From positions 1-56,699 of the forward strand of contig CAYHHR010000002.1 in the NCBI GenBank assembly GCA_964356495.1: DNA of 56,699 bases. The letters run 5' to 3'. The translations under genes and the position numbers were made by a program. This DNA comes from an uncultured Gammaproteobacteria bacterium (GTDB taxonomy: Bacteria; Patescibacteriota; Patescibacteriia; Magasanikbacterales; GWA2-37-8). The notes under the pieces are model-generated. The model had not been told where the DNA came from. It saw only the letters and a program-made list of their open reading frames with translations, and ran no database searches. Positions 2-46,664 of this stretch are shown here, one piece after another (position 1 is the stretch's first letter; every line of letters starts with the position of its first letter).

Positions 2-1351
2 ATGATTGAAAATATTTTGCAGTTTGAAAAAGATTATCCCGGCGCTAAAATTTTTAAACTTGAAACAAATTATCGCTCCAGCCGGGAAATTTTGGAAGTG
101 GCAAACAGTATCATCGAAAATAATCGTGAGCAGTACAAAAAAAGTTTGAAGACGGTCTTGGAAGGTGAGAAGCCCGATCTGTTTCCACAGTTAGACCAGC
201 AGTCCGAGGGACAATTCGTGGCGGAAAAAATCGCGGGGCTGCTCAAGGCCGGCACTTCGCCCTCAGAAATCTCGGTGCTATTCCGGGCCGCTCATCATTC
301 GCAGATGCTTGAAGTTGAGCTTGTCCAACGCGGGATCGAGTATGATTATCGCGGCGGCGTGCGATTTTTCGAGCGCAGCCACATCAAGGATGTGCTGGCA
401 TTTTTGCGTGTTCTAAATAACGTCGCCGATTCGGCCGCCTGGCTGCGCCTCCTCATGCACGAGGAGGGGATCGGGCCAGTCGCAGCGCAGAAAATTATCG
501 AGACGCTTCGCGCTCTGCCATCGGCAAATGTAGTTGTTGACGCGGGTCGTTCCGCGCTTTCCGGCAAGGCGTTGCTTGGTTGGGAAAATTTTGCTATTAT
601 CTGGGGTCAGTTGCTCCAGGCGCCGATCACTGTGCCGAACGAACTCATTCAAACAATTCTGAAATCTTCGTACCGCGATTATCTGGAAACGGAGTTTGTC
701 GACAGTAAAGAGAGAATGCAGGATCTGATGCAGCTCGCAATTTTCGCGGAAAAGTTTGACGACCTTTCGGAATTTCTCGCGAGTACGACGTTGCAGGAAA
801 CGTTCGCTCCTCCGACCTACCTCTCTCCGGCTCTCTCCTCTGCGGAGGCAGAGAGGGATGTTGAACCCTCGCCTCCGCAGAGGAGAGGGCAGGGAGAGGT
901 CTCGCTCACCAAACGGCAGGGTGAGGATTCGGGCAAGGTCGTCCTCTCTACCGTCCATCAGGCCAAAGGTCTCGAATGGGAAGCGGTTTTCATCATCAAT
1001 CTCGCCAACGGTTCGTTTCCGAGCGAGCGTTCGGCGCGCGAACCGAGAGGGCTCGAGGAGGAACGTCGTCTTTTGTATGTGGCAATCACGCGCGCGAAAA
1101 GGAAACTGGTTTTGACTTACCCGATGGCAGGGGGGATGTATGGTGATTTTCTTTCCGGCCCGAGCCGTTTCCTCGACGAGATAAATCCGGATTTTATCAA
1201 CGACCATTCGCTGTTATCCTCGGACGTGACGGTGCTGAATGACCCGTCGGAAGGAGTGGAATATGTGAGCGAAGACCCCGCCTCTTCGGCGGACGGGGCG
1301 CCCAAAAAGTTCAGTCCGGGGAGTTTCCTACGGGATATAAATGATTTGTGA
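2..1351 (+). CDS. UvrD/PcrA/Rep-family ATP-dependent DNA helicase, C-terminal part (5' end outside window)
   Basis: Superfamily-1 helicase motifs are present: LETNYRSS (motif IV), VVLSTVHQAKGLEWEAVF (motif V) and RRLLYVAITRAKRKL (motif VI). The ORF runs to the window edge. It contains the in-frame repeat A1. Confidence 0.85.
   Translation: MIENILQFEKDYPGAKIFKLETNYRSSREILEVANSIIENNREQYKKSLKTVLEGEKPDLFPQLDQQSEGQFVAEKIAGLLKAGTSPSEISVLFRAAHHSQMLEVELVQRGIEYDYRGGVRFFERSHIKDVLAFLRVLNNVADSAAWLRLLMHEEGIGPVAAQKIIETLRALPSANVVVDAGRSALSGKALLGWENFAIIWGQLLQAPITVPNELIQTILKSSYRDYLETEFVDSKERMQDLMQLAIFAEKFDDLSEFLASTTLQETFAPPTYLSPALSSAEAERDVEPSPPQRRGQGEVSLTKRQGEDSGKVVLSTVHQAKGLEWEAVFIINLANGSFPSERSAREPRGLEEERRLLYVAITRAKRKLVLTYPMAGGMYGDFLSGPSRFLDEINPDFINDHSLLSSDVTVLNDPSEGVEYVSEDPASSADGAPKKFSPGSFLRDINDL
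814..907 (+). repeat. Family A palindromic element, copy A1, in frame inside the UvrD-like CDS
   Basis: About 94 bp that is near-identical to 7664..7757. Both copies encode the same 19 aa (ERDVEPSPPQRRGQGEVSL). Nested inverted repeats: ctgcggagg/cctccgcag, and ctctctcc../..ggagaggtctcgct. Confidence 0.85.
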
Positions 1352-3215: not shown

Positions 3216-3297
3216 TTATCGCAGATGCGCGCGAGCGCCGCAGATATCGCGGATGTATCAATTGTATCTGCGCGGCCTCAAGGACATCTGCGTGATT
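3216..3297 (+). repeat. Family F intergenic repeat, copy F2 (rpsG-fusA spacer)
   Basis: Aligns with F1 and F3: atcgcagatgcgc..cgccgcagat..gtatctgcg..ggcctcaagg.catctgcg. Confidence 0.8.
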
Positions 3298-6333: not shown

Positions 6334-8577
6334 ATGAAATTCAAACTCCACTCCGACTATCAACCCGCCGGCGATCAGCCGAAAGCAATCGAACAGCTGG
6401 TCGATGGCCTTGAAAAAAATTTGAAACGCCAGACTCTCCTCGGCGTCACCGGTTCCGGAAAAACGTTCACAATCGCGAACGTGATTGAACGTGTCCAAAA
6501 ACCAACGCTCGTCATCGCTCACAACAAAACTCTTGCCGCCCAACTCTGCAATGAGTTTCGGGAATTTTTTCCGAAGAATGCCGTGGAATATTTTGTCAGT
6601 TATTATGATTATTATCAGCCGGAAGCGTACATGCCGAATTCGGATACCTATATCGAAAAGGAAGCGATGATCAACGAGGAAATCGACCGTCTTCGTCATG
6701 CCTGCACACAGGCTCTGCTGACACGCGATGATACGATTATCGTTGCGTCTGTTTCCGCGATTTATGGTCTTGGGTCGCCGTTTGAATATGAAAAAATTGT
6801 TTTGCATTTGCGAAAAGGCCAGGAACTCGATCGCCGCGCGATGCTGGAGCAGTTGATCGCGATGCAATTTGAAAGGACGAACAGCGAACTAAAATGCGGT
6901 TCGTTCCGGATGCGCGGACAAGTTTTCGAGATCATGCCGGTCAACGAGGACGCGATTTATCGTTTTGAAATTTCTGCGAGGATAACGCAGATTGAATTGA
7001 TTGACTCAATCACGCGGATAGTGAAACGCGAGGTAGAGGACGTGTGGTTGTTTCCGGCCAGACATTATGTAGTCGGTGAGGAGGGGAGAAAGCAAGCGTT
7101 TGATCGCATCAATAATGAATTGCAGAATCAGCTGGCGCTTTTCGAAAAGCAGGGCAAAGTTTTGGAATACGAAAGGCTGAAGCGCCGGGTCGCATATGAT
7201 TTGCAAATGATTAAGAACGTCGGTTACTGCAACGGCATTGAAAATTATTCTCGCCACTTCGAAGGCAGGACGGAGGGTGAACCCCCGTTTACGCTGCTCG
7301 ATTATTTTTTGCATAGGACTCAGAGGACGGCAAACCCCACCCAACCTCCCCTTGGAAAGGGGAGGGGGACATTTCTCACCGTCATCGACGAATCACACGT
7401 CACGCTTCCGCAAATTCGCAGTATGTACAACGGTGACAAGGCGCGGAAAGATACTTTGGTGGAGCACGGTTTTCGCTTGCCGAGCGCGCGTGATAATCGC
7501 CCGCTTACTTATACTGAGTTTGATTCCAAAATCGGCCAGGCAGTTTATGTTTCGGCGACGCCGAGCGAGTATGAGATGAAAGTTAGCGAACAAATCGTGG
7601 AGCAAATCGTTCGTCCGACCGGTCTTATCGATCCCGAGGTTATCGTGCGTCCGATTGTTGGGCGAGCGAGACCTCTCTCCGGCTCTCTCCTTTGCGAAGG
7701 AGAGAGGGACGTTGAACCCTCGCCTCCGCAGAGGAGAGGGCAGGGAGAGGTCTCGCTGTCACAAATCGAAGATTTAATCTTGCGCATCGAGGAGCGGGTG
7801 AAAAATAACGAACGCGTACTCGTCACCACTCTCACCAAAAAGATGGCTGAGGATTTGACGGAACATTTGAAAGAGAAAAATCTGAAGGTGGCATACCTCC
7901 ACAGCGATGTTAGTACCCTTGATCGCATTGAGGTTATTATGAATTTGCGCCTCGGTAAAAATGATGTCATCGTCGGGGTGAACCTTCTTCGTGAAGGGCT
8001 CGATATGCCGGAAGTTTCATTGGTGGCGATCCTCGACGCCGACAAGGAAGGATTTTTGCGGAGCGAAACAAGTTTGATTCAGACGATCGGCCGCGCCGCG
8101 CGCAATGTGAACGGGCAAGTTGTTTTGTATGCCGACAATATTACTGGTTCGATGAAAAGAGCGATCGAAGAAACCAATCGTCGCCGCGAAATTCAGATGG
8201 CCTACAACAAAGAGCACGGCATTACTCCGAAGACCATCCAAAAAGCGATCCGAAATATTTTGGAGGAATTTGGAATTTCCGCTGATAAAGCGAAGAATCG
8301 CAGGGCTATCGCTCGGCGCGACCGGCTCGCGACGACTACTGAGCTTGATCTGATTGGCGACGGACGCACGATAAGTGTTATAATAAAAGAAAAGGAGACG
8401 CAGATGAAGCAAGCGGCGCAAGAATTGGATTTCGAATTAGCGGCGATTTTGCGAGATGAGATACGAGAGCTGAGAGCAAGAGAAAAAACGACCGGGGTCA
8501 AAGAATTAAAAAAACAAAAAAATAATTATCATACAGGGGTCGTTATTGGCTCCTCCCCCTCACCAAGGGGGAGTTAG
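6334..8577 (+). CDS. uvrB: Excinuclease ABC subunit B
   Basis: GVTGSGKTF (Walker A), VIDESHVT, LVTTLTKKMAEDLT, LREGLD.PEVSLVAILDADKEGFLRS and a C-terminal UVR motif. At 747 aa it is longer than typical UvrB because of three repeat-derived segments. Confidence 0.95.
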   Translation: MKFKLHSDYQPAGDQPKAIEQLVDGLEKNLKRQTLLGVTGSGKTFTIANVIERVQKPTLVIAHNKTLAAQLCNEFREFFPKNAVEYFVSYYDYYQPEAYMPNSDTYIEKEAMINEEIDRLRHACTQALLTRDDTIIVASVSAIYGLGSPFEYEKIVLHLRKGQELDRRAMLEQLIAMQFERTNSELKCGSFRMRGQVFEIMPVNEDAIYRFEISARITQIELIDSITRIVKREVEDVWLFPARHYVVGEEGRKQAFDRINNELQNQLALFEKQGKVLEYERLKRRVAYDLQMIKNVGYCNGIENYSRHFEGRTEGEPPFTLLDYFLHRTQRTANPTQPPLGKGRGTFLTVIDESHVTLPQIRSMYNGDKARKDTLVEHGFRLPSARDNRPLTYTEFDSKIGQAVYVSATPSEYEMKVSEQIVEQIVRPTGLIDPEVIVRPIVGRARPLSGSLLCEGERDVEPSPPQRRGQGEVSLSQIEDLILRIEERVKNNERVLVTTLTKKMAEDLTEHLKEKNLKVAYLHSDVSTLDRIEVIMNLRLGKNDVIVGVNLLREGLDMPEVSLVAILDADKEGFLRSETSLIQTIGRAARNVNGQVVLYADNITGSMKRAIEETNRRREIQMAYNKEHGITPKTIQKAIRNILEEFGISADKAKNRRAIARRDRLATTTELDLIGDGRTISVIIKEKETQMKQAAQELDFELAAILRDEIRELRAREKTTGVKELKKQKNNYHTGVVIGSSPSPRGS
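7321..7369 (+). repeat. Family B element, copy B1, in frame in uvrB
   Basis: ggcaaaccccacccaacctccccttggaaaggggaggggga encodes ANPTQPPLGKGRG just before the DESH box. It matches 8998..9050 and 45742..45783. Confidence 0.85.
7664..7757 (+). repeat. Family A element, copy A2, in frame in uvrB
   Basis: Near-identical to A1. It inserts about 31 aa between VRPIVG and QIEDL, which are contiguous in canonical UvrB. The terminal arms (agcgagacctctc...) are inverted. Confidence 0.9.
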
Positions 8578-8598
8578 AGGGGGTTTGCCTTCCTCTGC
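8548..8598 (-). repeat. Family B element, copy B2 (reverse orientation)
   Basis: ggctcctccccctcaccaagggggagttagagggggtttgcc is the reverse complement of the B consensus. It supplies the last roughly 10 codons and the stop codon of uvrB. Confidence 0.8.
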
Positions 8599-8630
8599 CC
8601 TGCCGAGAGTTGCCTGTCGTTCAATCGTTT

Positions 8631-9059
8631 ATGTCCAAAACAAACAATCTCACCGTACAAAAAAATCGCCGTCAGGACTTAAGGAGCAACATGTCTGTAC
8701 CGGAAAAAATATTATGGAAATGGATTAAAAATGAACAACTCGGCTATAAATTTCGTCGACAACATGGTATTAAACAGTTTATTGCGGATTTCTATTGTCC
8801 AATGTTGAGTTTAGTTATTGAAATCGACGGTCGGATTCATGGTGAGGAGCCTATTGCGACAAAAGATAAATATCGGGATAATGTTATGGTTGGACTGGGA
8901 CTAATTGTTAAACGTTATACGGCTACAGAAATAAATAATAATTTAGATTGGGTTTTGAGTGATTTGAAGAATTGTTGTAGCGAACTTGCCTCGGCGCCAC
9001 AGAGGAAGGCAAACCCCACCTACCCTCCCCTTGGAAAGGGGAGGGAGCCAATGTCGTGA
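8631..9059 (+). CDS. DUF559 (Vsr/restriction-endonuclease-like) domain protein
   Basis: PEKILWKWIKNEQLGYKFRRQH...ADFYCP..LVIEIDG..H matches the DUF559 pattern. The C-terminal roughly 17 aa are encoded by repeat B3. An alternative TTG start lies at 8610. Confidence 0.7.
   Translation: MSKTNNLTVQKNRRQDLRSNMSVPEKILWKWIKNEQLGYKFRRQHGIKQFIADFYCPMLSLVIEIDGRIHGEEPIATKDKYRDNVMVGLGLIVKRYTATEINNNLDWVLSDLKNCCSELASAPQRKANPTYPPLGKGREPMS
8998..9050 (+). repeat. Family B element, copy B3
   Basis: cagaggaaggcaaaccccacctaccctccccttggaaaggggagggagcc is inverted relative to B2 across the DUF559 gene. Confidence 0.85.
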
Positions 9060-18008: not shown

Positions 18009-18389
18009 ATGACACAACCGGTAACAGCATCACTTAGATACTATCGAATGGGCCCGAAAAAGCTCCGTCTGATTGTGGACCTTATTCGCGGCAAGCGCGT
18101 AACTCGCGCTCAGTCGATACTTAGCCTCCTCAACAAAAAAGGCGCGAAGCCGATGTTGAAGTTGCTTAATTCTGCTGTTGCTAACGCAAAACACAATTAT
18201 AATCTTGGTTTGGAAAATTTGATTGTGAAGTCGATTATGGTTGATGGCGGTCCGATGCTGAAAAGATTTATGCCGAAAGCGCACGGCCGCGCGACACCGG
18301 TAAGAGAAAGAACGTCACATGTGAGCCTAGTTCTCGAAGCACTTGAAATGAAACAAAAAGCTAAATCTGAAAGCAAAAAAACTAATTAA
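18009..18389 (+). CDS. rplV: 50S ribosomal protein L22
   Basis: ..PKKLRLIVDLIRGK....A...L.......A......L.SA.ANA..N. Confidence 0.95.
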   Translation: MTQPVTASLRYYRMGPKKLRLIVDLIRGKRVTRAQSILSLLNKKGAKPMLKLLNSAVANAKHNYNLGLENLIVKSIMVDGGPMLKRFMPKAHGRATPVRERTSHVSLVLEALEMKQKAKSESKKTN

Positions 18390-19545: not shown

Positions 19546-19566
19546 TTATATGGGCTACGCCACATA

Positions 19567-19624
19567 TAATCTAATTCGCTCGGAAATGAAAATTAATTTT
19601 CATTTCGCTCACTCATTACGATTA
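19567..19624 (+). repeat. Family I hairpin element, copy I1, abutting the rpmC ATG
   Basis: taatctaattcgctcggaaatgaaaattaattttcatttcgctcactcattacgatta is the reverse complement of 38480..38537 with a few mismatches. Confidence 0.8.
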
Positions 19625-19806
19625 TGGATTTCGCGGATTTAAAAGCCAAAAGCAAAGCGGAACTAGGTGATTTATTGAAAGAATTAGATCAGAAGTTGTT
19701 TGTGTTTCGTCTTCAGGCCCACATGCGCCGCTTGAAGCAGGTGCATGAGATTAGTGCCCTCCGCCGAACTATCGCCCGCGTTCACATGTTATTAGATACC
19801 AAGTAA
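19624..19806 (+). CDS. rpmC: 50S ribosomal protein L29
   Basis: 60 aa with ..LK..S..EL...L.EL...LF.LR.Q... in the expected operon position. Confidence 0.9.
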   Translation: MDFADLKAKSKAELGDLLKELDQKLFVFRLQAHMRRLKQVHEISALRRTIARVHMLLDTK

Positions 19807-22945: not shown

Positions 22946-23024
22946 TATCGCAGATGCGCATAGCGCGCCGCAGATGTCGCAGATGTATCTGCGTAATCTG
23001 CGGGCCCCAAGGCTATCTGTGTAA
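22946..23024 (+). repeat. Family F intergenic repeat, copy F3 (rplR-rpsE spacer)
   Basis: atatcgcagatgcgcatagcgcgccgcagatgtcgcagatgtatctgcgtaatctgcgggccccaaggctatctgtg aligns with F1 and F2. Confidence 0.8.
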
Positions 23025-23036
23025 TAAACGTAAAAT

Positions 23037-23576
23037 ATGAACAAAGGATCACGAAGAGGTGGGCGAGAAAGAGAAAAGTCAGAGTTTGACCAATTTATTT
23101 TAGATATTGCCAGGGTGACGCGCGTCACGCAAGGCGGCAAGCATTTGAGTTTCCGCGTCTGTGTTATCCTTGGCGATCGACACGGAACTGTCGGATTCGG
23201 CGTCGCGAAAGGCAAAGACGTCCAACTCGGAGTAGAGAAAGCGGTGCACCAGGCGAAGAAGCATATGATCAAGGTGCCAATCGTACGAGACACTCTTCCT
23301 CACATGGTAGTCCGAAAGTATAAGGCCGCCATGGTCATGTTGAAGCCGGCTCCAAGAGGTTCCGGTATTATCGCTGGCGGAGCGGCACGCGTGGTGCTCG
23401 AGCTCGCCGGCATCCCGAACGTTTCTTCAAAAATTCTCGGCAAAACCAAAAATAAAATCGCGATCGTAAAGGCTACCTTTGACGCTCTCCAGAGTTTCAA
23501 GCGCGTGCCTGTTTCAATGAAAAAAATAACTTCACCGGTTGTCGTCGAAACTAAAACTGAAGAAAAAGCTAAATAA
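23037..23576 (+). CDS. rpsE: 30S ribosomal protein S5
   Basis: ..I.RV.RV..GG....F...V.VGD..G.VG.G.GKA..V..A..KA. Confidence 0.95.
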   Translation: MNKGSRRGGREREKSEFDQFILDIARVTRVTQGGKHLSFRVCVILGDRHGTVGFGVAKGKDVQLGVEKAVHQAKKHMIKVPIVRDTLPHMVVRKYKAAMVMLKPAPRGSGIIAGGAARVVLELAGIPNVSSKILGKTKNKIAIVKATFDALQSFKRVPVSMKKITSPVVVETKTEEKAK

Positions 23577-25982: not shown

Positions 25983-26020
25983 GAGCCGGACCTTTCAAGG
26001 TGCCGGCTCTTACTTTTTTA
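25983..26020 (+). terminator. Rho-independent terminator
   Basis: gagccgg-N13-ccggctc stem followed by a T-rich tail (ttactttttt). Confidence 0.6.
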
Positions 26021-26027
26021 CCAACTT

Positions 26028-26130
26028 CTCTCCCCTTTTAGGGGAGAGGCGAGGAGAGGGGAATTGTTTGGAAGTTTCGAGTTCGCGCGAATACCCCACC
26101 CACTGTCCCTCCCCTAATAGGGGAGGGGAA
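26028..26130 (+). repeat. Family E composite element, copy E1 (about 103 bp)
   Basis: ctctcccctttaggggagag + gcgaggagagggg..gttcgcg..ataccccacc..ccctcccctaataggggaggg aligns along its length with 44359..44463. Confidence 0.8.
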
Positions 26131-26140
26131 TTATGAAGGC

Positions 26141-31918: not shown

Positions 31919-32488
31919 CTAGTCTTTTTTTAACTTAATTAGATCGATAAATTCACGTGCATTTTTTGAAATTCTGATGTTATAGCGAGTTTTTCTTCCT
32001 TTAACCAAAATTGTATATTTGTTGGCTTTGAATTTTAATGAGTCAATAATCTCCATTACATCTATGGCAAGTGAAGGTGTTGTGGTTACAAAATTCACCA
32101 TTATGTAGCCTCTGTCATTATAAATCGAACCGTCGGTTTCTATTAGCCCTCTTAGGCAGGCAATTGAATATTTTGCATCACTTTTAATCCAATTTGGTAT
32201 CTTGACTTTTTGCACGTTTTTACTGCCGCCCTTCGCCTTCCAGCCCAATAGTTGTTCCCACTTATTCGAATAGCAGCTTATATCGACGTAGCTGTCTTTA
32301 CCGCCCTTAATAGTCGATACTTTATTTTTCGGAGCCACTAGCTGAATTGATTCACAAATGCGTTTAATAAGTTTTGGATAATTTGTATCGCAGGTTATTC
32401 TCAATCTAACAGCCCGGCCATTTGGATTAGAAAGATTTCCATCGCCAAGCGCTAGCCCTATTACGTAGGCTAGAATTTTCTTTTTCAT
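31919..32488 (-). CDS. Free-standing double-motif LAGLIDADG homing-endonuclease-like protein
   Basis: Two LAGLIDADG motifs: LAYVIGLALGDGNL and IACLRGLIETDGSI. The ATG at 32488 is preferred because the longer ORF-track start overlaps tRNA-Leu. Confidence 0.75.
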   Translation of the reverse strand: MKKKILAYVIGLALGDGNLSNPNGRAVRLRITCDTNYPKLIKRICESIQLVAPKNKVSTIKGGKDSYVDISCYSNKWEQLLGWKAKGGSKNVQKVKIPNWIKSDAKYSIACLRGLIETDGSIYNDRGYIMVNFVTTTPSLAIDVMEIIDSLKFKANKYTILVKGRKTRYNIRISKNAREFIDLIKLKKD

Positions 32489-32504
32489 ATTTGAATTGGT
32501 ATAG

Positions 32505-32586
32505 TGCCGCCGGTCGGAATCGAACCGACATGCCGTTAAGCGCACGATTTTGAGTCGTGAGTGTCTACCAGTTCCACCACGGCGGC
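32505..32586 (-). tRNA. tRNA-Leu (anticodon CAA)
   Basis: Cloverleaf read on the minus strand: GCCGCCG acceptor stem, anticodon arm CACGA-CTCAAAA-TCGTG, long variable arm, and GGTTCGATTCC T-arm. CCA is not encoded. Confidence 0.85.
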
Positions 32587-38451: not shown

Positions 38452-38479
38452 ATGACAAAAAATTATAGGCTACTCATTA

Positions 38480-38537
38480 TAATCGTAATGAGTGAGTGAA
38501 ATGAAAATTTATTTTCATTTCCGAGCGAATTAGATTA
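38480..38537 (-). repeat. Family I hairpin element, copy I2 (upstream of topA)
   Basis: Reverse complement of I1 with the central hairpin ggaaatgaaaat..attttcatttc. It lies 28 nt upstream of the topA ATG, in the same orientation relative to the gene as I1 has to rpmC. Confidence 0.8.
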
Positions 38538-38595
38538 TATCGAAGATATATATATACCTATTCAAATTACACGCATTTTCACTCAGTGTCAATTT

Positions 38596-44358: not shown

Positions 44359-44463
44359 CTCCCTCCCTCTATTAGGGGAGGGGCAGGAGAGGGGTATCGT
44401 TGGGGATTTTCGTTCGTGGGGATACCCCCATCCTCGCCTTCCCCCTAATAGGGGGAAGGGAAA
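44359..44463 (+). repeat. Family E composite element, copy E2 (about 105 bp)
   Basis: ctccctccctctattaggggaggg + gcaggagagggg..gttcgtgggg..atacccccatc..ccttccccctaatagggggaaggg aligns with E1. Confidence 0.8.
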
Positions 44464-44504: not shown

Positions 44505-46664
44505 ATGGTTCATATGGATCTCCAAACTAGGATCGAAGCTCTAAACAAAGTCGGGAAGACGACTGCTAAAAAGCTGGAACGGCTTGGTATTTTTACTGTT
44601 AATAATTTACTTCATCATTATCCGTTTCGTTACGAAGATTTTAGCCGCGTCGCGCCGATCAAGGATTTGCGCGAGGGCGATTCGGTGACGGTGAAAGGCG
44701 TGATTGAATTGATCGCCAATCGTCGGATTCGCAACCGACGCAGTCTTACCGAAGCCCTGCTTACCGATGAGACCGGCAGTATCAGGCTGATCTGGTTTAA
44801 TCAGCCGTACCTCACAAAAAATCTCGAGACCGGCACGGAAGTATATATTTCCGGCGTGATAAAACATGATGCGCTCGGTTTGCAGTTCGTGAGTCCCGCC
44901 TATGAATTAGCCTCGCGACGTAATATTCACACCGCTCGCCTGGTGCCGATGTATCCTCTCACCGAAGGGATCACACAGAAGCAGGTGAGATTTTTGGTTG
45001 AGCAATCATTGCCGGCCGCGCCAACCATAAGTGATTGGTTGCCGGAGAAAATTAAGAAGGAAAATAATCTGATCGCGTTGCAGGGGGCGATTAAGCAAAT
45101 TCATTTTCCAGAATCTGACGCGCAAATGAATTTGGCCACCGAGCGTCTGAAGTTTGATGAATTATTTTTGATTCAGCTCCAGGCGGAACTCGCTCGCCAC
45201 GAGCAAACTATTCTAAGGGCGCCAGTGTTGGCATTTCATGAGGAAGAAATAAAAAAGTTTGTGGCTGGTCTGCCGTTTACTCTCACCAAGGATCAAAAAA
45301 TTTCGGCTTGGGAAATTCTACAAAATATTGCCGGCGAAGTGCCGATGAACCGGCTGTTGTCCGGCGACGTCGGATCCGGCAAGACCGTGGTCGCCGCCGT
45401 TGCTCTCTACAATACCGTTCTTTCCGGTTTCCAGGGGATCATGATGGCGCCAACGGAGATTTTGGCAACGCAGCATTTTGATTCGGTCTGCAGATTGTTG
45501 CAGGATCAGACGCTAGTATTGTTTACTCGTTCACATCATTTAATATTTAAGAATCGAGAGAAGTTCGAGGTTTCAAAGAAAGAACTGCAAAAGATAATCG
45601 CCACCGGCGAAGCGAACGTGATCATTGGGACGCATGCTTTGCTGTCGGAAGGGGTTGAGTTTAAAAATGTTGGCCTCGTGGTCGTGGACGAACAGCATCG
45701 TTTCGGAGTATTGCAGAGGAAAGTGATTAAGAGCAAAGGAGGGCAAACCCCACCTAACCTCCCCTTGGAAAGGGGAGGGAGCCACGCCGTGCACTTTCTC
45801 AGCATGACGGCGACGCCGATCCCGCGTTCGCTCGCTCTGATGGTCTATGGTGATCTTGATGTTTCTGTAATCAGAGAAATGCCGCCGGGAAGAAAACCGG
45901 TTATGACCAGGATCGTCGAGCCGCGAAATCGCGACAAGGCTTATGAATTTATTCGAAAAGAAGTTGGGAAAGGCGGACAGGTGTTTGTGGTTTGTCCGTT
46001 GATTGACGCCAACCCACCCCTACCCCGTCCGAGCGGGGACTTCATTGTGAATGATAAAAAATCGGTAATGACTGAATACAAAAAATTATCTGAAAATATT
46101 TTTCCGAATTTGAGAGTCAATTATCTCCACGGTAAGATGAAAGGTGAAGAAAAAGAAAAAATAATGGCGCAGTTTAAAAATAAGGAATATGATATTCTGG
46201 TTTCGACTTCGGTGATCGAAGTCGGAGTGGATGTGCCAAACGCGACCATTATGTTGATCGAGGGAGCCGAGCGGTTTGGGTTGGCGCAGCTGCATCAGTT
46301 CAGAGGGAGAGTGGGGAGGGGCGACCGGCAGTCTTATTGTTTTGTATTTACGGACAGCGAGACCTCTCCCTACCCTCTCCTCTGTGGAGGCGAGGGTTCA
46401 CGAACTATGGAGCGGTTGCGTTTTTTTGAAAAACATCAGAACGGTTTCGAGCTGGCCGAAAAAGATTTGGAGTTGCGTGGTCCCGGGGAAGTCTATGGGA
46501 CGACGCAGAGCGGAATGATGCAACTCCGCCTAGCTAAGCTTTCGGACACCGCGTTAATAAAAAAAGCCCGCGAGTCAGCGCGAGTTATTTCATCTCAACT
46601 TTCAGAATTCCCGGAGCTCATTAAAAAAATGAAAGAGTGGGAAGAGTCGGTGCACTTAGAATGA
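44505..46664 (+). CDS. recG: ATP-dependent DNA helicase RecG
   Basis: Wedge/OB N-terminal domain, then GDVGSGKT, VVDEQHRFGV, MTATPIPRSLA, VIEVGVDVPNA and FRGRVGRG. Carries three in-frame repeat insertions. Confidence 0.95.
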   Translation: MVHMDLQTRIEALNKVGKTTAKKLERLGIFTVNNLLHHYPFRYEDFSRVAPIKDLREGDSVTVKGVIELIANRRIRNRRSLTEALLTDETGSIRLIWFNQPYLTKNLETGTEVYISGVIKHDALGLQFVSPAYELASRRNIHTARLVPMYPLTEGITQKQVRFLVEQSLPAAPTISDWLPEKIKKENNLIALQGAIKQIHFPESDAQMNLATERLKFDELFLIQLQAELARHEQTILRAPVLAFHEEEIKKFVAGLPFTLTKDQKISAWEILQNIAGEVPMNRLLSGDVGSGKTVVAAVALYNTVLSGFQGIMMAPTEILATQHFDSVCRLLQDQTLVLFTRSHHLIFKNREKFEVSKKELQKIIATGEANVIIGTHALLSEGVEFKNVGLVVVDEQHRFGVLQRKVIKSKGGQTPPNLPLERGGSHAVHFLSMTATPIPRSLALMVYGDLDVSVIREMPPGRKPVMTRIVEPRNRDKAYEFIRKEVGKGGQVFVVCPLIDANPPLPRPSGDFIVNDKKSVMTEYKKLSENIFPNLRVNYLHGKMKGEEKEKIMAQFKNKEYDILVSTSVIEVGVDVPNATIMLIEGAERFGLAQLHQFRGRVGRGDRQSYCFVFTDSETSPYPLLCGGEGSRTMERLRFFEKHQNGFELAEKDLELRGPGEVYGTTQSGMMQLRLAKLSDTALIKKARESARVISSQLSEFPELIKKMKEWEESVHLE
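45742..45783 (+). repeat. Family B element, copy B4, in frame in recG
   Basis: ggcaaaccccacctaacctccccttggaaaggggagggagcc is read in a different frame from B1 and B3 (QTPPNLPLERGGS). It lies between helicase motifs II and III. Confidence 0.85.
46009..46042 (+). repeat. Family C element, copy C3, in frame in recG
   Basis: ccaacccacccctaccccgtccgagcggggactt encodes NPPLPRPSGDF, in the same frame as C1. Confidence 0.85.
46356..46402 (-). repeat. Family A half-element, copy A3 (reverse orientation), in frame in recG
   Basis: agcgagacctctccctaccctctcctctgtggaggcgagggttca is the reverse complement of the right half of A1 and A2. It encodes ETSPYPLLCGGEGS. Confidence 0.8.

Follow-up and report, generated by a model that had tools for sequence, protein, structure and literature searches.

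A dispersed palindromic repeat of the BoxC kind, probably read in frame and tolerated inside essential genes of a Patescibacteria genome

The stretch of DNA analysed here (the window) comprises the 56,699 nucleotides of contig CAYHHR010000002.1 (assembly GCA_964356495.1), deposited as an uncultured Gammaproteobacteria bacterium and placed by GTDB in the Magasanikbacterales of the Patescibacteriota. Three of its genes, all for DNA-repair helicases and all on the forward strand, contain copies of one palindromic element. The first gene (2..1351) encodes the C-terminal part of a UvrD/PcrA-like helicase (Pfam UvrD_C and UvrD_C_2; PcrA and UvrD in the PDB) and is cut by the window start; the second is uvrB (6334..8577) and the third recG (44505..46664). 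Copy A1 (818..907, plus strand) is an in-frame insertion of 90 nt in the UvrD-like gene that adds the peptide YLSPALSSAEAERDVEPSPPQRRGQGEVSL, as delimited by comparison of filled with empty sites. Copy A2 (7664..7757, plus strand) is a full doublet with both terminal arms intact (AGCGAGACCTCTC...GAGAGGTCTCGCT) and is read in uvrB as RARPLSGSLLCEGERDVEPSPPQRRGQGEVS, in the linker between the helicase domains. A third copy, of half length and in reverse orientation (46353..46400, minus strand), is read in frame as SETSPYPLLCGGEGS after helicase motif VI of RecG; it had been overlooked by the sequence-only reading that drew attention to the other two. All three copies lie inside long open reading frames (ORFs).

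The sequence-only reading held that near-identical palindromic DNA occurs in two unrelated proteins, and pairwise alignment bears this out with an identity far above chance. Between 814-907 and 7664-7757, 87 of 96 aligned columns match, and between the cores of A1 and A2 (819-907 and 7671-7757), which are direct repeats and align with one 1-nt indel, 84 of 89 columns match (94%). Of the 23-nt core CCTCGCCTCCGCAGAGGAGAGGG the window has three occurrences, and 100 dinucleotide-preserving shuffles have none. Folding as both DNA and RNA, as had been anticipated, was strong: the minimum free energies of A1 and A2 were −69.2 and −71.5 kcal/mol as RNA (z about −7) and −37.6 and −36.5 kcal/mol as single-stranded DNA. 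The terminal inverted arms ascribed to the element are intact in A2, whereas the left arm of A1 is degenerate, with TACCTCTC in place of GAGACCTCTC. An assembly artefact was ruled out, since independent assemblies (P0001, P0241 and L083 at 99.9%) have the same sequence.

For a detailed characterization of the anatomy, we aligned 35 copies of full length, taken from the window and from related genomes. The element is an inverted doublet, each half of which is a GC-rich hairpin, CCCTCGCCTC-CGCA-GAGGAGAGGG, with a G/A mismatch kept at the same position in 29 of the 35 copies; on the outer side of each hairpin a G-rich segment, GGGAGAGGT, mirrors the purine arm. Covariation is evident in the two local hairpins: at one pair CG (17 copies) alternates with UA (16), and the count of double-change cells, 37, compares with 16.5 in shuffles and was reached in 0 of 500 shuffles. 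Changes in the third segment follow those of the duplex, with T/T/A in 16 copies, C/C/G in 10 and four discordant; as the copies are related, the p-value is only indicative. One long arm-to-arm hairpin was rejected as the constrained structure, its covariation being no better than that of shuffles. Neither the two local hairpins as the constrained structure nor the doublet of BoxC-like units had been recognised in the sequence-only reading.

The third segment brings the element close to the intrastrand triplex motifs of Holder et al. (2015, Nucleic Acids Research), and its sequence falls within their general description of such motifs. We re-implemented the class II rules of ITxF (compatible triads C-G*G, T-A*A and T-A*T, stems of 6–15 nt, loops of 1–6 nt and at most one mismatch) and ran the scan with stems of at least 8 nt. 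The window yielded 12 units, whereas 20 scrambled copies of it yielded none. Four of them, at 866-900, 7671-7707 (minus strand), 7717-7751 and 46362-46396 (minus strand), correspond to the right half of A1, both halves of A2 and the recG copy. The A1 right-hand unit (866..900, plus strand) reads CCCTCGCCT-ccgcag-AGGAGAGGG-ca-GGGAGAGGT and comprises nine triads with one G/A mismatch. The A2 left-hand unit (7671..7707, minus strand), CCTCTCTCCT-tcgcaa-AGGAGAGAGC-c-GGAGAGAGGT, was returned by the scan and is backed by covariation that links its tail to both the 5′ arm and the 3′ arm, and the A2 right-hand unit (7717..7751, plus strand) was likewise returned by the scan. At least one unit is present in 34 of the 35 aligned copies and both units in 24. 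To judge from sequence and third-segment covariation, each unit would be compatible with an intrastrand triplex, which is a predicted fold. Rfam at gathering thresholds matched only three tRNAs in the window and nothing on the elements.

Comparison with relatives shows where these copies sit. The best bounds of A1 (818-907, exactly 30 codons) were taken from the closest insert-free relative (P0122/L078, 83% protein identity), in which the empty site reads LQENFAAPK|SEQKSVRSDK. The insert stands directly upstream of motif V (VVLSTVHQAKGLEW), in a gap-rich stretch that is variable among 120 aligned homologs and over which the alignment with the PcrA structure breaks; the idea that A1 occupies a variable linker just before motif V is therefore borne out. 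In JBBTSL01, the nearest relative, whose host genes are only about 78% identical, the UvrD ortholog (84% identity) is likewise filled at this position (locus L074), with a copy 95% identical to A1. A homolog of 58% identity carries an insert of the same family there in another frame, and further homologs carry different families.

The uvrB gene contains three element-derived stretches, at aa 333-341, at aa 445-475 (A2) and in the C-terminal extension at aa 732-747. The nearest UvrB relatives (P0004-P0012) have an empty site at A2, GKKETNQLSQ, so that the empty sites which had been predicted were found at both A1 and A2. The UvrB proteins P0002 and P0003 (88% identity) have a wholly different palindrome at this site (−36 kcal/mol; peptide SRKSRSVILSETKN...), and in the closest relative (88% protein identity; locus L078, GCA_021812425, ~18210-18310) an unrelated, AT-richer palindrome, GTCATTCTGAG...CTCAGGATGAC (−36 kcal/mol), encoding SRKSRSVILSETKNLLNKNDKGSFTVAQDDNG, stands exactly at the A2 site, which in the relative L081 is empty (compared with window 7660-7760). 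Since one relative has an unrelated palindrome and another none, the same loop has been hit independently by different repeat families; many other lineages have inserts of their own in it. The stretch at aa 333-341 (window 7321-7371) is a net insertion of 42 nt relative to L078 and L081, is derived from a triplex motif and encodes NPTQPPLGKGRG. Its empty counterpart contains AGGCAAAC, which is found also inside the element at that site, by microhomology or coincidence. In the 16-residue C-terminal extension the last 11 codons come from a triplex-motif unit at 8545-8577. RecG has three different element insertions, at 45734-45784, 46006-46044 and 46353-46400, the first two of which belong to other in-frame triplex-motif families (GGQTPPNLPLERGG and ANPPLPRPSG).

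Structural comparisons agree with these findings. PDB alignments break or gap at every insert of the window in UvrB, UvrD and RecG. In solved UvrB structures nothing corresponds to aa 445-475 and residue 444 leads directly to residue 476, and the three RecG elements each face a gap in the Thermotoga maritima RecG structure 1GM5. An AlphaFold model of UvrB (64 homologs) had a mean pLDDT (predicted local distance difference test) of 78.5; the segments 333-344, 445-471 and 721-747, which are the element-derived stretches, fell below 50 and had no secondary structure, and the only other segments below 50 were 96-99 and 103-109. The inserts occupy variable, permissive loops or interdomain linkers.

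The element is not confined to the window. The exact 23-nt core was found at 77 loci in species-representative genomes, and a profile search of the window and these loci returned 64 non-overlapping copies, so that the search for more copies suggested by the sequence-only reading was productive as well. Within the Patescibacteria the core occurs in JBBTSL01 (~18 loci), several Magasanikbacteria and Peribacteria. Distance from contig ends allowed 48 Patescibacteria-type copies to be judged, and 38 of them (79%) lie in stop-free stretches of at least 150 codons, compared with 83% of random 90-nt segments of the same loci; the element is therefore not excluded from genes. Its hosts in related genomes are genuine, unrelated housekeeping proteins: CysRS, KsgA (two copies), MnmA, LigA, PolA, RadA, a UvrA-like ABC ATPase, a pseudouridine synthase, a PrmC-like methyltransferase and a P-type ATPase. 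Single half-units are dispersed by themselves in recG and in CAYSQU01, and across the alignment the left ends of copies are far more degenerate than the right ends.

The identical core, G/A mismatch included, was also found in multiple copies in two lineages of Chloroflexota (a subset of loci L002-L077: CAWEJL01, DASVAA01 and DATEGV01, metagenome-assembled genomes of Chloroflexia and Ktedonobacterales), where the third segment is GGGGGTGAGG instead. In CAWEJL01 the core often follows another repeat, GAGAAGGCCC...GCGGGGCGAGA.... Because the core is common to separate phyla, horizontal spread or a common mobilising agent is implied. The exact core was absent from IMG/VR, and blastn against GenBank phages returned nothing. 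A spread that includes the Gammaproteobacteria was considered and rejected, as the genomes so labelled are syntenic with the window and are evidently mislabelled Patescibacteria. These genomes, titled 'uncultured Gammaproteobacteria bacterium' (CAYSQU01, CAZHNI01 and CAZMYO01), have 64–70% nucleotide identity in the recG, radA and clpB region and contain the same repeats; synteny was established for the CAYSQU01 and CAZMYO01 loci and CAZHNI01 was grouped with them by repeat type only. The loci concerned are L001, L003, L004, L007, L019, L034, L035, L037, L054, L062, L065, L066, L069 and L075.

The reading frames in which the copies are used vary. A1 and A2 had been described as read in the same frame; this holds for the 3′ two-thirds, where both encode the 19-aa peptide ERDVEPSPPQRRGQGEVSL, and not for the 5′ thirds, which are read in different frames (YLSPALSSAEA in A1, RPLSGSLLCEG in A2) because of the 1-nt indel near position 849. 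Among the copies of the family all six combinations of frame and orientation are in use, giving six recurrent peptides, and a mean of 4.4 of six frames per element is open, compared with 2.6 in composition-matched shuffles. The net insert lengths of 90 nt in uvrD and 42 nt at the first uvrB site are divisible by three.

By its sequence the element is a triplex-motif repeat of the BoxC kind, yet it is not TMECO, the Escherichia coli prototype of these motifs (= BoxC; example CCCTCGCCCCTTTGGGGAGAGGGTTAGGGTGAGGGG; PMC4666352), because the strict TMECO pattern is unmatched. This pattern, CCCTCNCCC-N3-6-GGGNGAGGG-N3-GGGNGAGGG, had no match in the window, and among all fetched loci only E. coli L082 and IMG/VR L117 fitted it. 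The likeness extends over the layout in three blocks (C-rich stem and loop, G-rich stem and short loop, then a second, mirrored G-rich segment, with class II triads), the opening CCCTCGCC and the position of the G/A mismatch, which is identical and which the 'mm' types of TMECO carry (PMC4666352). In both cases the copies are numerous, of very high identity and arranged as single units and inverted pairs (the 'palindromic' pairs of E. coli; PMC4666352), there is no associated transposase, and the loci vary between relatives. The E. coli motifs, for which the triplex was shown by circular dichroism and nuclear magnetic resonance and near which no mobility genes were found, are always intergenic (23 of 23 TMECO in E. 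coli K-12; PMC4666352), whereas 79% of the present copies lie inside ORFs and are read in frame. Further differences are the ninth triad of A1 and A2 (T-A*T), a loop 2 of 2 nt, the additional conserved terminal arms (GGTCTCGCT) of the doublet, and the hosts, which are Patescibacteria and also Chloroflexota, not Proteobacteria or Cyanobacteria.

In behaviour, the closest analogues are the Rickettsia palindromic elements (RPEs; Ogata et al., 2000, Science; 2002, Genome Research), for which insertion into genes in frame is on record (PMC10969869). RPEs are likewise short palindromic repeats in frame in unrelated, often essential genes of a small-genome bacterium, with a family-specific peptide, fold-compatible positions and no known transposase (PMC10969869). 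The same behaviour was found here, namely a palindromic repeat in frame in many unrelated genes at fold-compatible sites, as seen from the hosts, the structure gaps and the low pLDDT. RPEs are about 100–150 bp long and occur in Rickettsia only, whereas the present elements are GC-rich triplex-motif doublets used in six frames with a core found across phyla. Kinship by descent is neither claimed nor expected.

Taken together, these data make it probable that A1 and A2 are copies of a dispersed repeat of about 90–96 bp and of non-coding origin, and the recG copy a single unit of it, which lie in frame inside essential genes and are translated as tolerated loops. The family would have spread into, or survived in, the coding sequence of unrelated housekeeping genes in a Patescibacteria lineage near the Magasanikbacteria. 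It would persist there because the net insertion keeps the frame, because the element is nearly stop-free in every frame and because the surviving copies lie in surface loops or linkers. The inserts are most likely translated and tolerated, as has been proposed for RPEs (PMC10969869), in the form of short loops that are disordered and have a high content of Pro, Gly, Ser, Arg and Glu, and we infer that the element is selfish or commensal and not useful.

Several points weigh against this explanation. One is the possible cost, to an mRNA, of harbouring a hairpin of about −70 kcal/mol. At A2 the insertion is not a clean one, as about 19 nt of the original linker is missing from the filled uvrB alleles relative to the empty allele. 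Neither a target-site duplication nor a transposase was identified, so that mobility is deduced from distribution only, and, as noted above, the strict TMECO pattern is unmatched. Finally, the DNA of the element is conserved to a degree unexpected for a junk passenger. Between the window and JBBTSL01 the uvrD copy matches at 84 of 89 positions (94%) and the recG half copy (L020) at 46 of 48 (96%), while third codon positions in the flanks are only 51% and 55% identical, respectively. Its conservation equals that of second codon positions and extends to each of the three positions in its own codons. Decay would be expected of a passenger that had been neutral for so long, and hence there is some constraint on the DNA. 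Possible causes are gene conversion among copies, self-correction templated by the hairpin, recurrent replacement, or selection on DNA or RNA structure.

The last of these leads to the alternative that survives best, namely that the element is a functional nucleic-acid signal under selection (a triplex, cruciform or RNA hairpin serving as a site of replication, recombination or repair, as a protein-binding site or as a translational pause) whose translation is incidental. This view accounts well for the conservation of the orthologous copies at all codon positions, for the compensatory changes that maintain the local hairpins, for a third segment that tracks the duplex and for a G/A mismatch common to E. 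coli and Patescibacteria. We nevertheless regard it as unlikely. Presence and absence differ among close relatives, unrelated palindromes occupy the same loops, and the copies are placed relative to genes like random segments. For the triplex motifs of E. coli neither promoter or terminator activity nor a triplex in vivo was found (PMC4666352), and gene conversion or hairpin-templated repair could produce the conservation instead.

Improbable, too, is a classical MITE (miniature inverted-repeat transposable element), that is, an insertion sequence with an internal deletion which is moved in trans, with duplication of its target site, by a DDE transposase that recognises the terminal inverted repeats. 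A length of about 90–100 bp, multiple copies, polymorphic sites and inverted terminal arms would suit such an element, and arms of this kind were found in A2 (AGCGAGACCTCTC and GAGAGGTCTCGCT), although A1, like many other copies, has a degenerate left arm. When the uvrD junctions and those of both uvrB sites were set against empty alleles at 15–20% divergence, however, no convincing target-site duplication emerged, and none was consistent at the two comparable sites (uvrD and uvrB). The unequal decay of left and right ends and the dispersal of half-units alone also argue against a MITE. Pfam identified no transposase family among 33 ORFs of the window (the three host genes and 30 others, ribosomal-protein and translation-factor genes being unscanned), and no transposase was found near the E. 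coli triplex motifs (PMC4666352). MITEs such as the QMITE elements of Coxiella (PMC5896051) and intragenic enterobacterial repetitive intergenic consensus (ERIC) sequences are likewise small non-autonomous repeats that sometimes extend or interrupt ORFs in frame, but genic insertion is exceptional there and mostly at gene ends, whereas here insertion in mid-gene is the rule.

The doublet of inverted hairpins, confirmed by alignment and covariation, together with dispersed or decayed singlets, long persistence and high conservation, recalls REPINs, pairs of inverted repetitive extragenic palindromic (REP) hairpins (Bertels and Rainey, 2011; PMC3116915). These would be mobilised as single-stranded hairpin DNA by a REP-associated tyrosine transposase (RAYT), an IS200/IS605-like Y1 enzyme, a mechanism that predicts the lack of target-site duplications seen here. 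We hold out little prospect for this explanation. No GTAG or CGTC tag, the hallmark as set out in PMC3733652, stands beside the hairpins in our alignment, no RAYT or other Y1 transposase was seen among the 33 scanned ORFs of the 56.7 kb window, and REPINs are extragenic by definition, whereas the present copies are mostly intragenic.

All three hosts in the window are DNA-repair helicases (UvrD-like, UvrB and RecG) and 19 residues of the shared peptide are identical, which might suggest a genuine protein module, such as an interaction motif or a linker, that these helicases acquired independently; this is very improbable. Hosts elsewhere include tRNA synthetases, methyltransferases and an ATPase; other proteins use the same DNA in all six frames, and even A1 and A2 differ in frame over their 5′ parts. 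Disorder is predicted for the inserts, and close orthologs do without them. As for a known conserved domain, which would have spoken against an element of DNA origin, the peptide matches no Pfam family. A search with the 34-aa insert among 1.84 billion representative proteins gave two matches only, to unrelated tandem-repeat surface proteins (P0244 and P0245), and a 62-aa concatenation of both peptide versions found no candidate in an index of 5.8 billion proteins. The peptide is a by-product, present in both proteins because identical DNA is read in the same frame, and not a protein module or domain. Equally remote is the proposal that the insert is untranslated and is removed or bypassed at the RNA or ribosome level, in the manner of an intervening sequence or of the bypassed GC-rich palindromic inserts of Magnusiomyces yeast mitochondria: the very stable hairpin would fit, but skipping gives no reason for net lengths divisible by three, and a frame free of stops in nearly all genic copies would be needless.

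If the copies are those of a dispersed repeat, the question of its mobility arises, and here small nuclease genes offer a lead. The ORF at 8610..9059, downstream of uvrB, is by Pfam a DUF559 gene (Vsr-like nuclease fold, PD-(D/E)XK). It is tightly bracketed by inverted triplex-motif units at 8552-8584 (plus strand) and 9012-9045 (minus strand), the bracket as a whole spanning 8545-9059; the in-frame unit in 9000-9050 belongs to another GC-rich family. The gene is not at this position in the relatives L078 and L081 and adjoins ksgA in JBBTSL01. Such a bracket was present at all five DUF559 genes with both flanks visible, namely in the window, L015 (4331-4821), L037 (7392-7850), L044 (6420-6970) and L084 (2767-3428), and the stretches L117 (1325-1899) and L082 (1705-2261) were recorded alongside them. 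As an independent sample, 80 DUF559 loci with flanks of up to 1.5 kb on each side were collected from IMG/VR by a scan with a DUF559 alignment. Nine of them contain a GC-rich triplex motif; in all nine the gene has one no more than 200 nt away, and in six it has one on either side. The inverted pair of one IMG/VR locus (L117) fits the strict TMECO pattern. E. coli K-12 has an annotated DUF559 gene, ycjD, with a TMECO 168 nt downstream of it. A metagenome scan for DUF559 relatives yielded two loci only, one of them from the same strain as the window, and a literature search on DUF559 found nothing that ties it to these repeats.

These observations permit the tentative and still rather doubtful suggestion that BoxC/triplex-motif repeats may be moved or homed by small DUF559 nuclease genes bracketed by inverted units. 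The conserved G/A mismatch in an extruded hairpin would be a possible recognition target for an enzyme resembling a mismatch endonuclease, and the break would be repaired with another copy as template. Such a process could explain the lack of target duplications, the appearance of replacement at uvrB, the hot spots and the homogenisation of copies, and a nuclease-driven, repair-templated process may be the best lead on mobility, ahead of classical cut-and-paste transposition. The G-rich tails point inward in the DUF559 cassette and outward in A1 and A2; A1 and A2 are therefore not simple internal-deletion derivatives of the cassette. Two intergenic triplex-motif doublets of the window, at 26027-26128 and 44360-44460, have their tails inward, in the same orientation as the DUF559 brackets, and the first (26020-26135) folds at −53 kcal/mol (z −3.7).

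Full-text searches for palindromic elements or repeats in connection with Patescibacteria or the Candidate Phyla Radiation found no such elements described. What would surprise a specialist is that a BoxC-like repeat has colonised essential genes in frame, that it is conserved at the nucleotide level and that it is associated with DUF559. Protein-coding palindromes inserted in frame have so far been treated as a peculiarity of Rickettsia, and triplex motifs of the BoxC type as strictly intergenic and of unexplained origin. The locus joins both, in that a BoxC-like family lies mostly inside essential genes of an ultra-small Patescibacteria genome and is read in every frame. If this were general, it would account for part of the variation in loop length among UvrB and UvrD-like homologs of Patescibacteria, would caution annotators and structure predictors that such loops are repeat-derived, and would provide natural maps of permissive insertion sites in conserved enzymes. 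The DUF559 link and the strong DNA conservation would then give a handle on how repeats spread and persist. Should the DUF559 process itself prove true, it would seed essential genes of the gene-dense Patescibacteria with translated loops and be a steady source of protein-loop variation.

Some further features of the window lie apart from the element. Between the helicase gene and rpsL the relatives L078-L080 have a minus-strand M20 peptidase gene; the window has about 850 nt there (1352-2204) with no ORF of at least 100 aa, likely a gene loss or a decayed remnant. A minus-strand ORF of 208 aa at 31919-32586 has a LAGLIDADG_3 domain (E 7e-10), and its start overlaps the tRNA gene at 32505-32586 on the same strand; it may be a homing-endonuclease-like or WhiA-like gene beside a tRNA. 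Two intergenic repeats were also recorded. One is a 62-nt inverted pair, 97% complementary, at 19564-19625 (after rplP) and 38479-38540 (between topA and dprA), 18.9 kb apart; the other is a hairpin repeat, GCGCCGCAGATGTCGCAGATGTATCTG..., situated between ribosomal protein genes at 2655-2732, 3235-3277 and 22961-23038.

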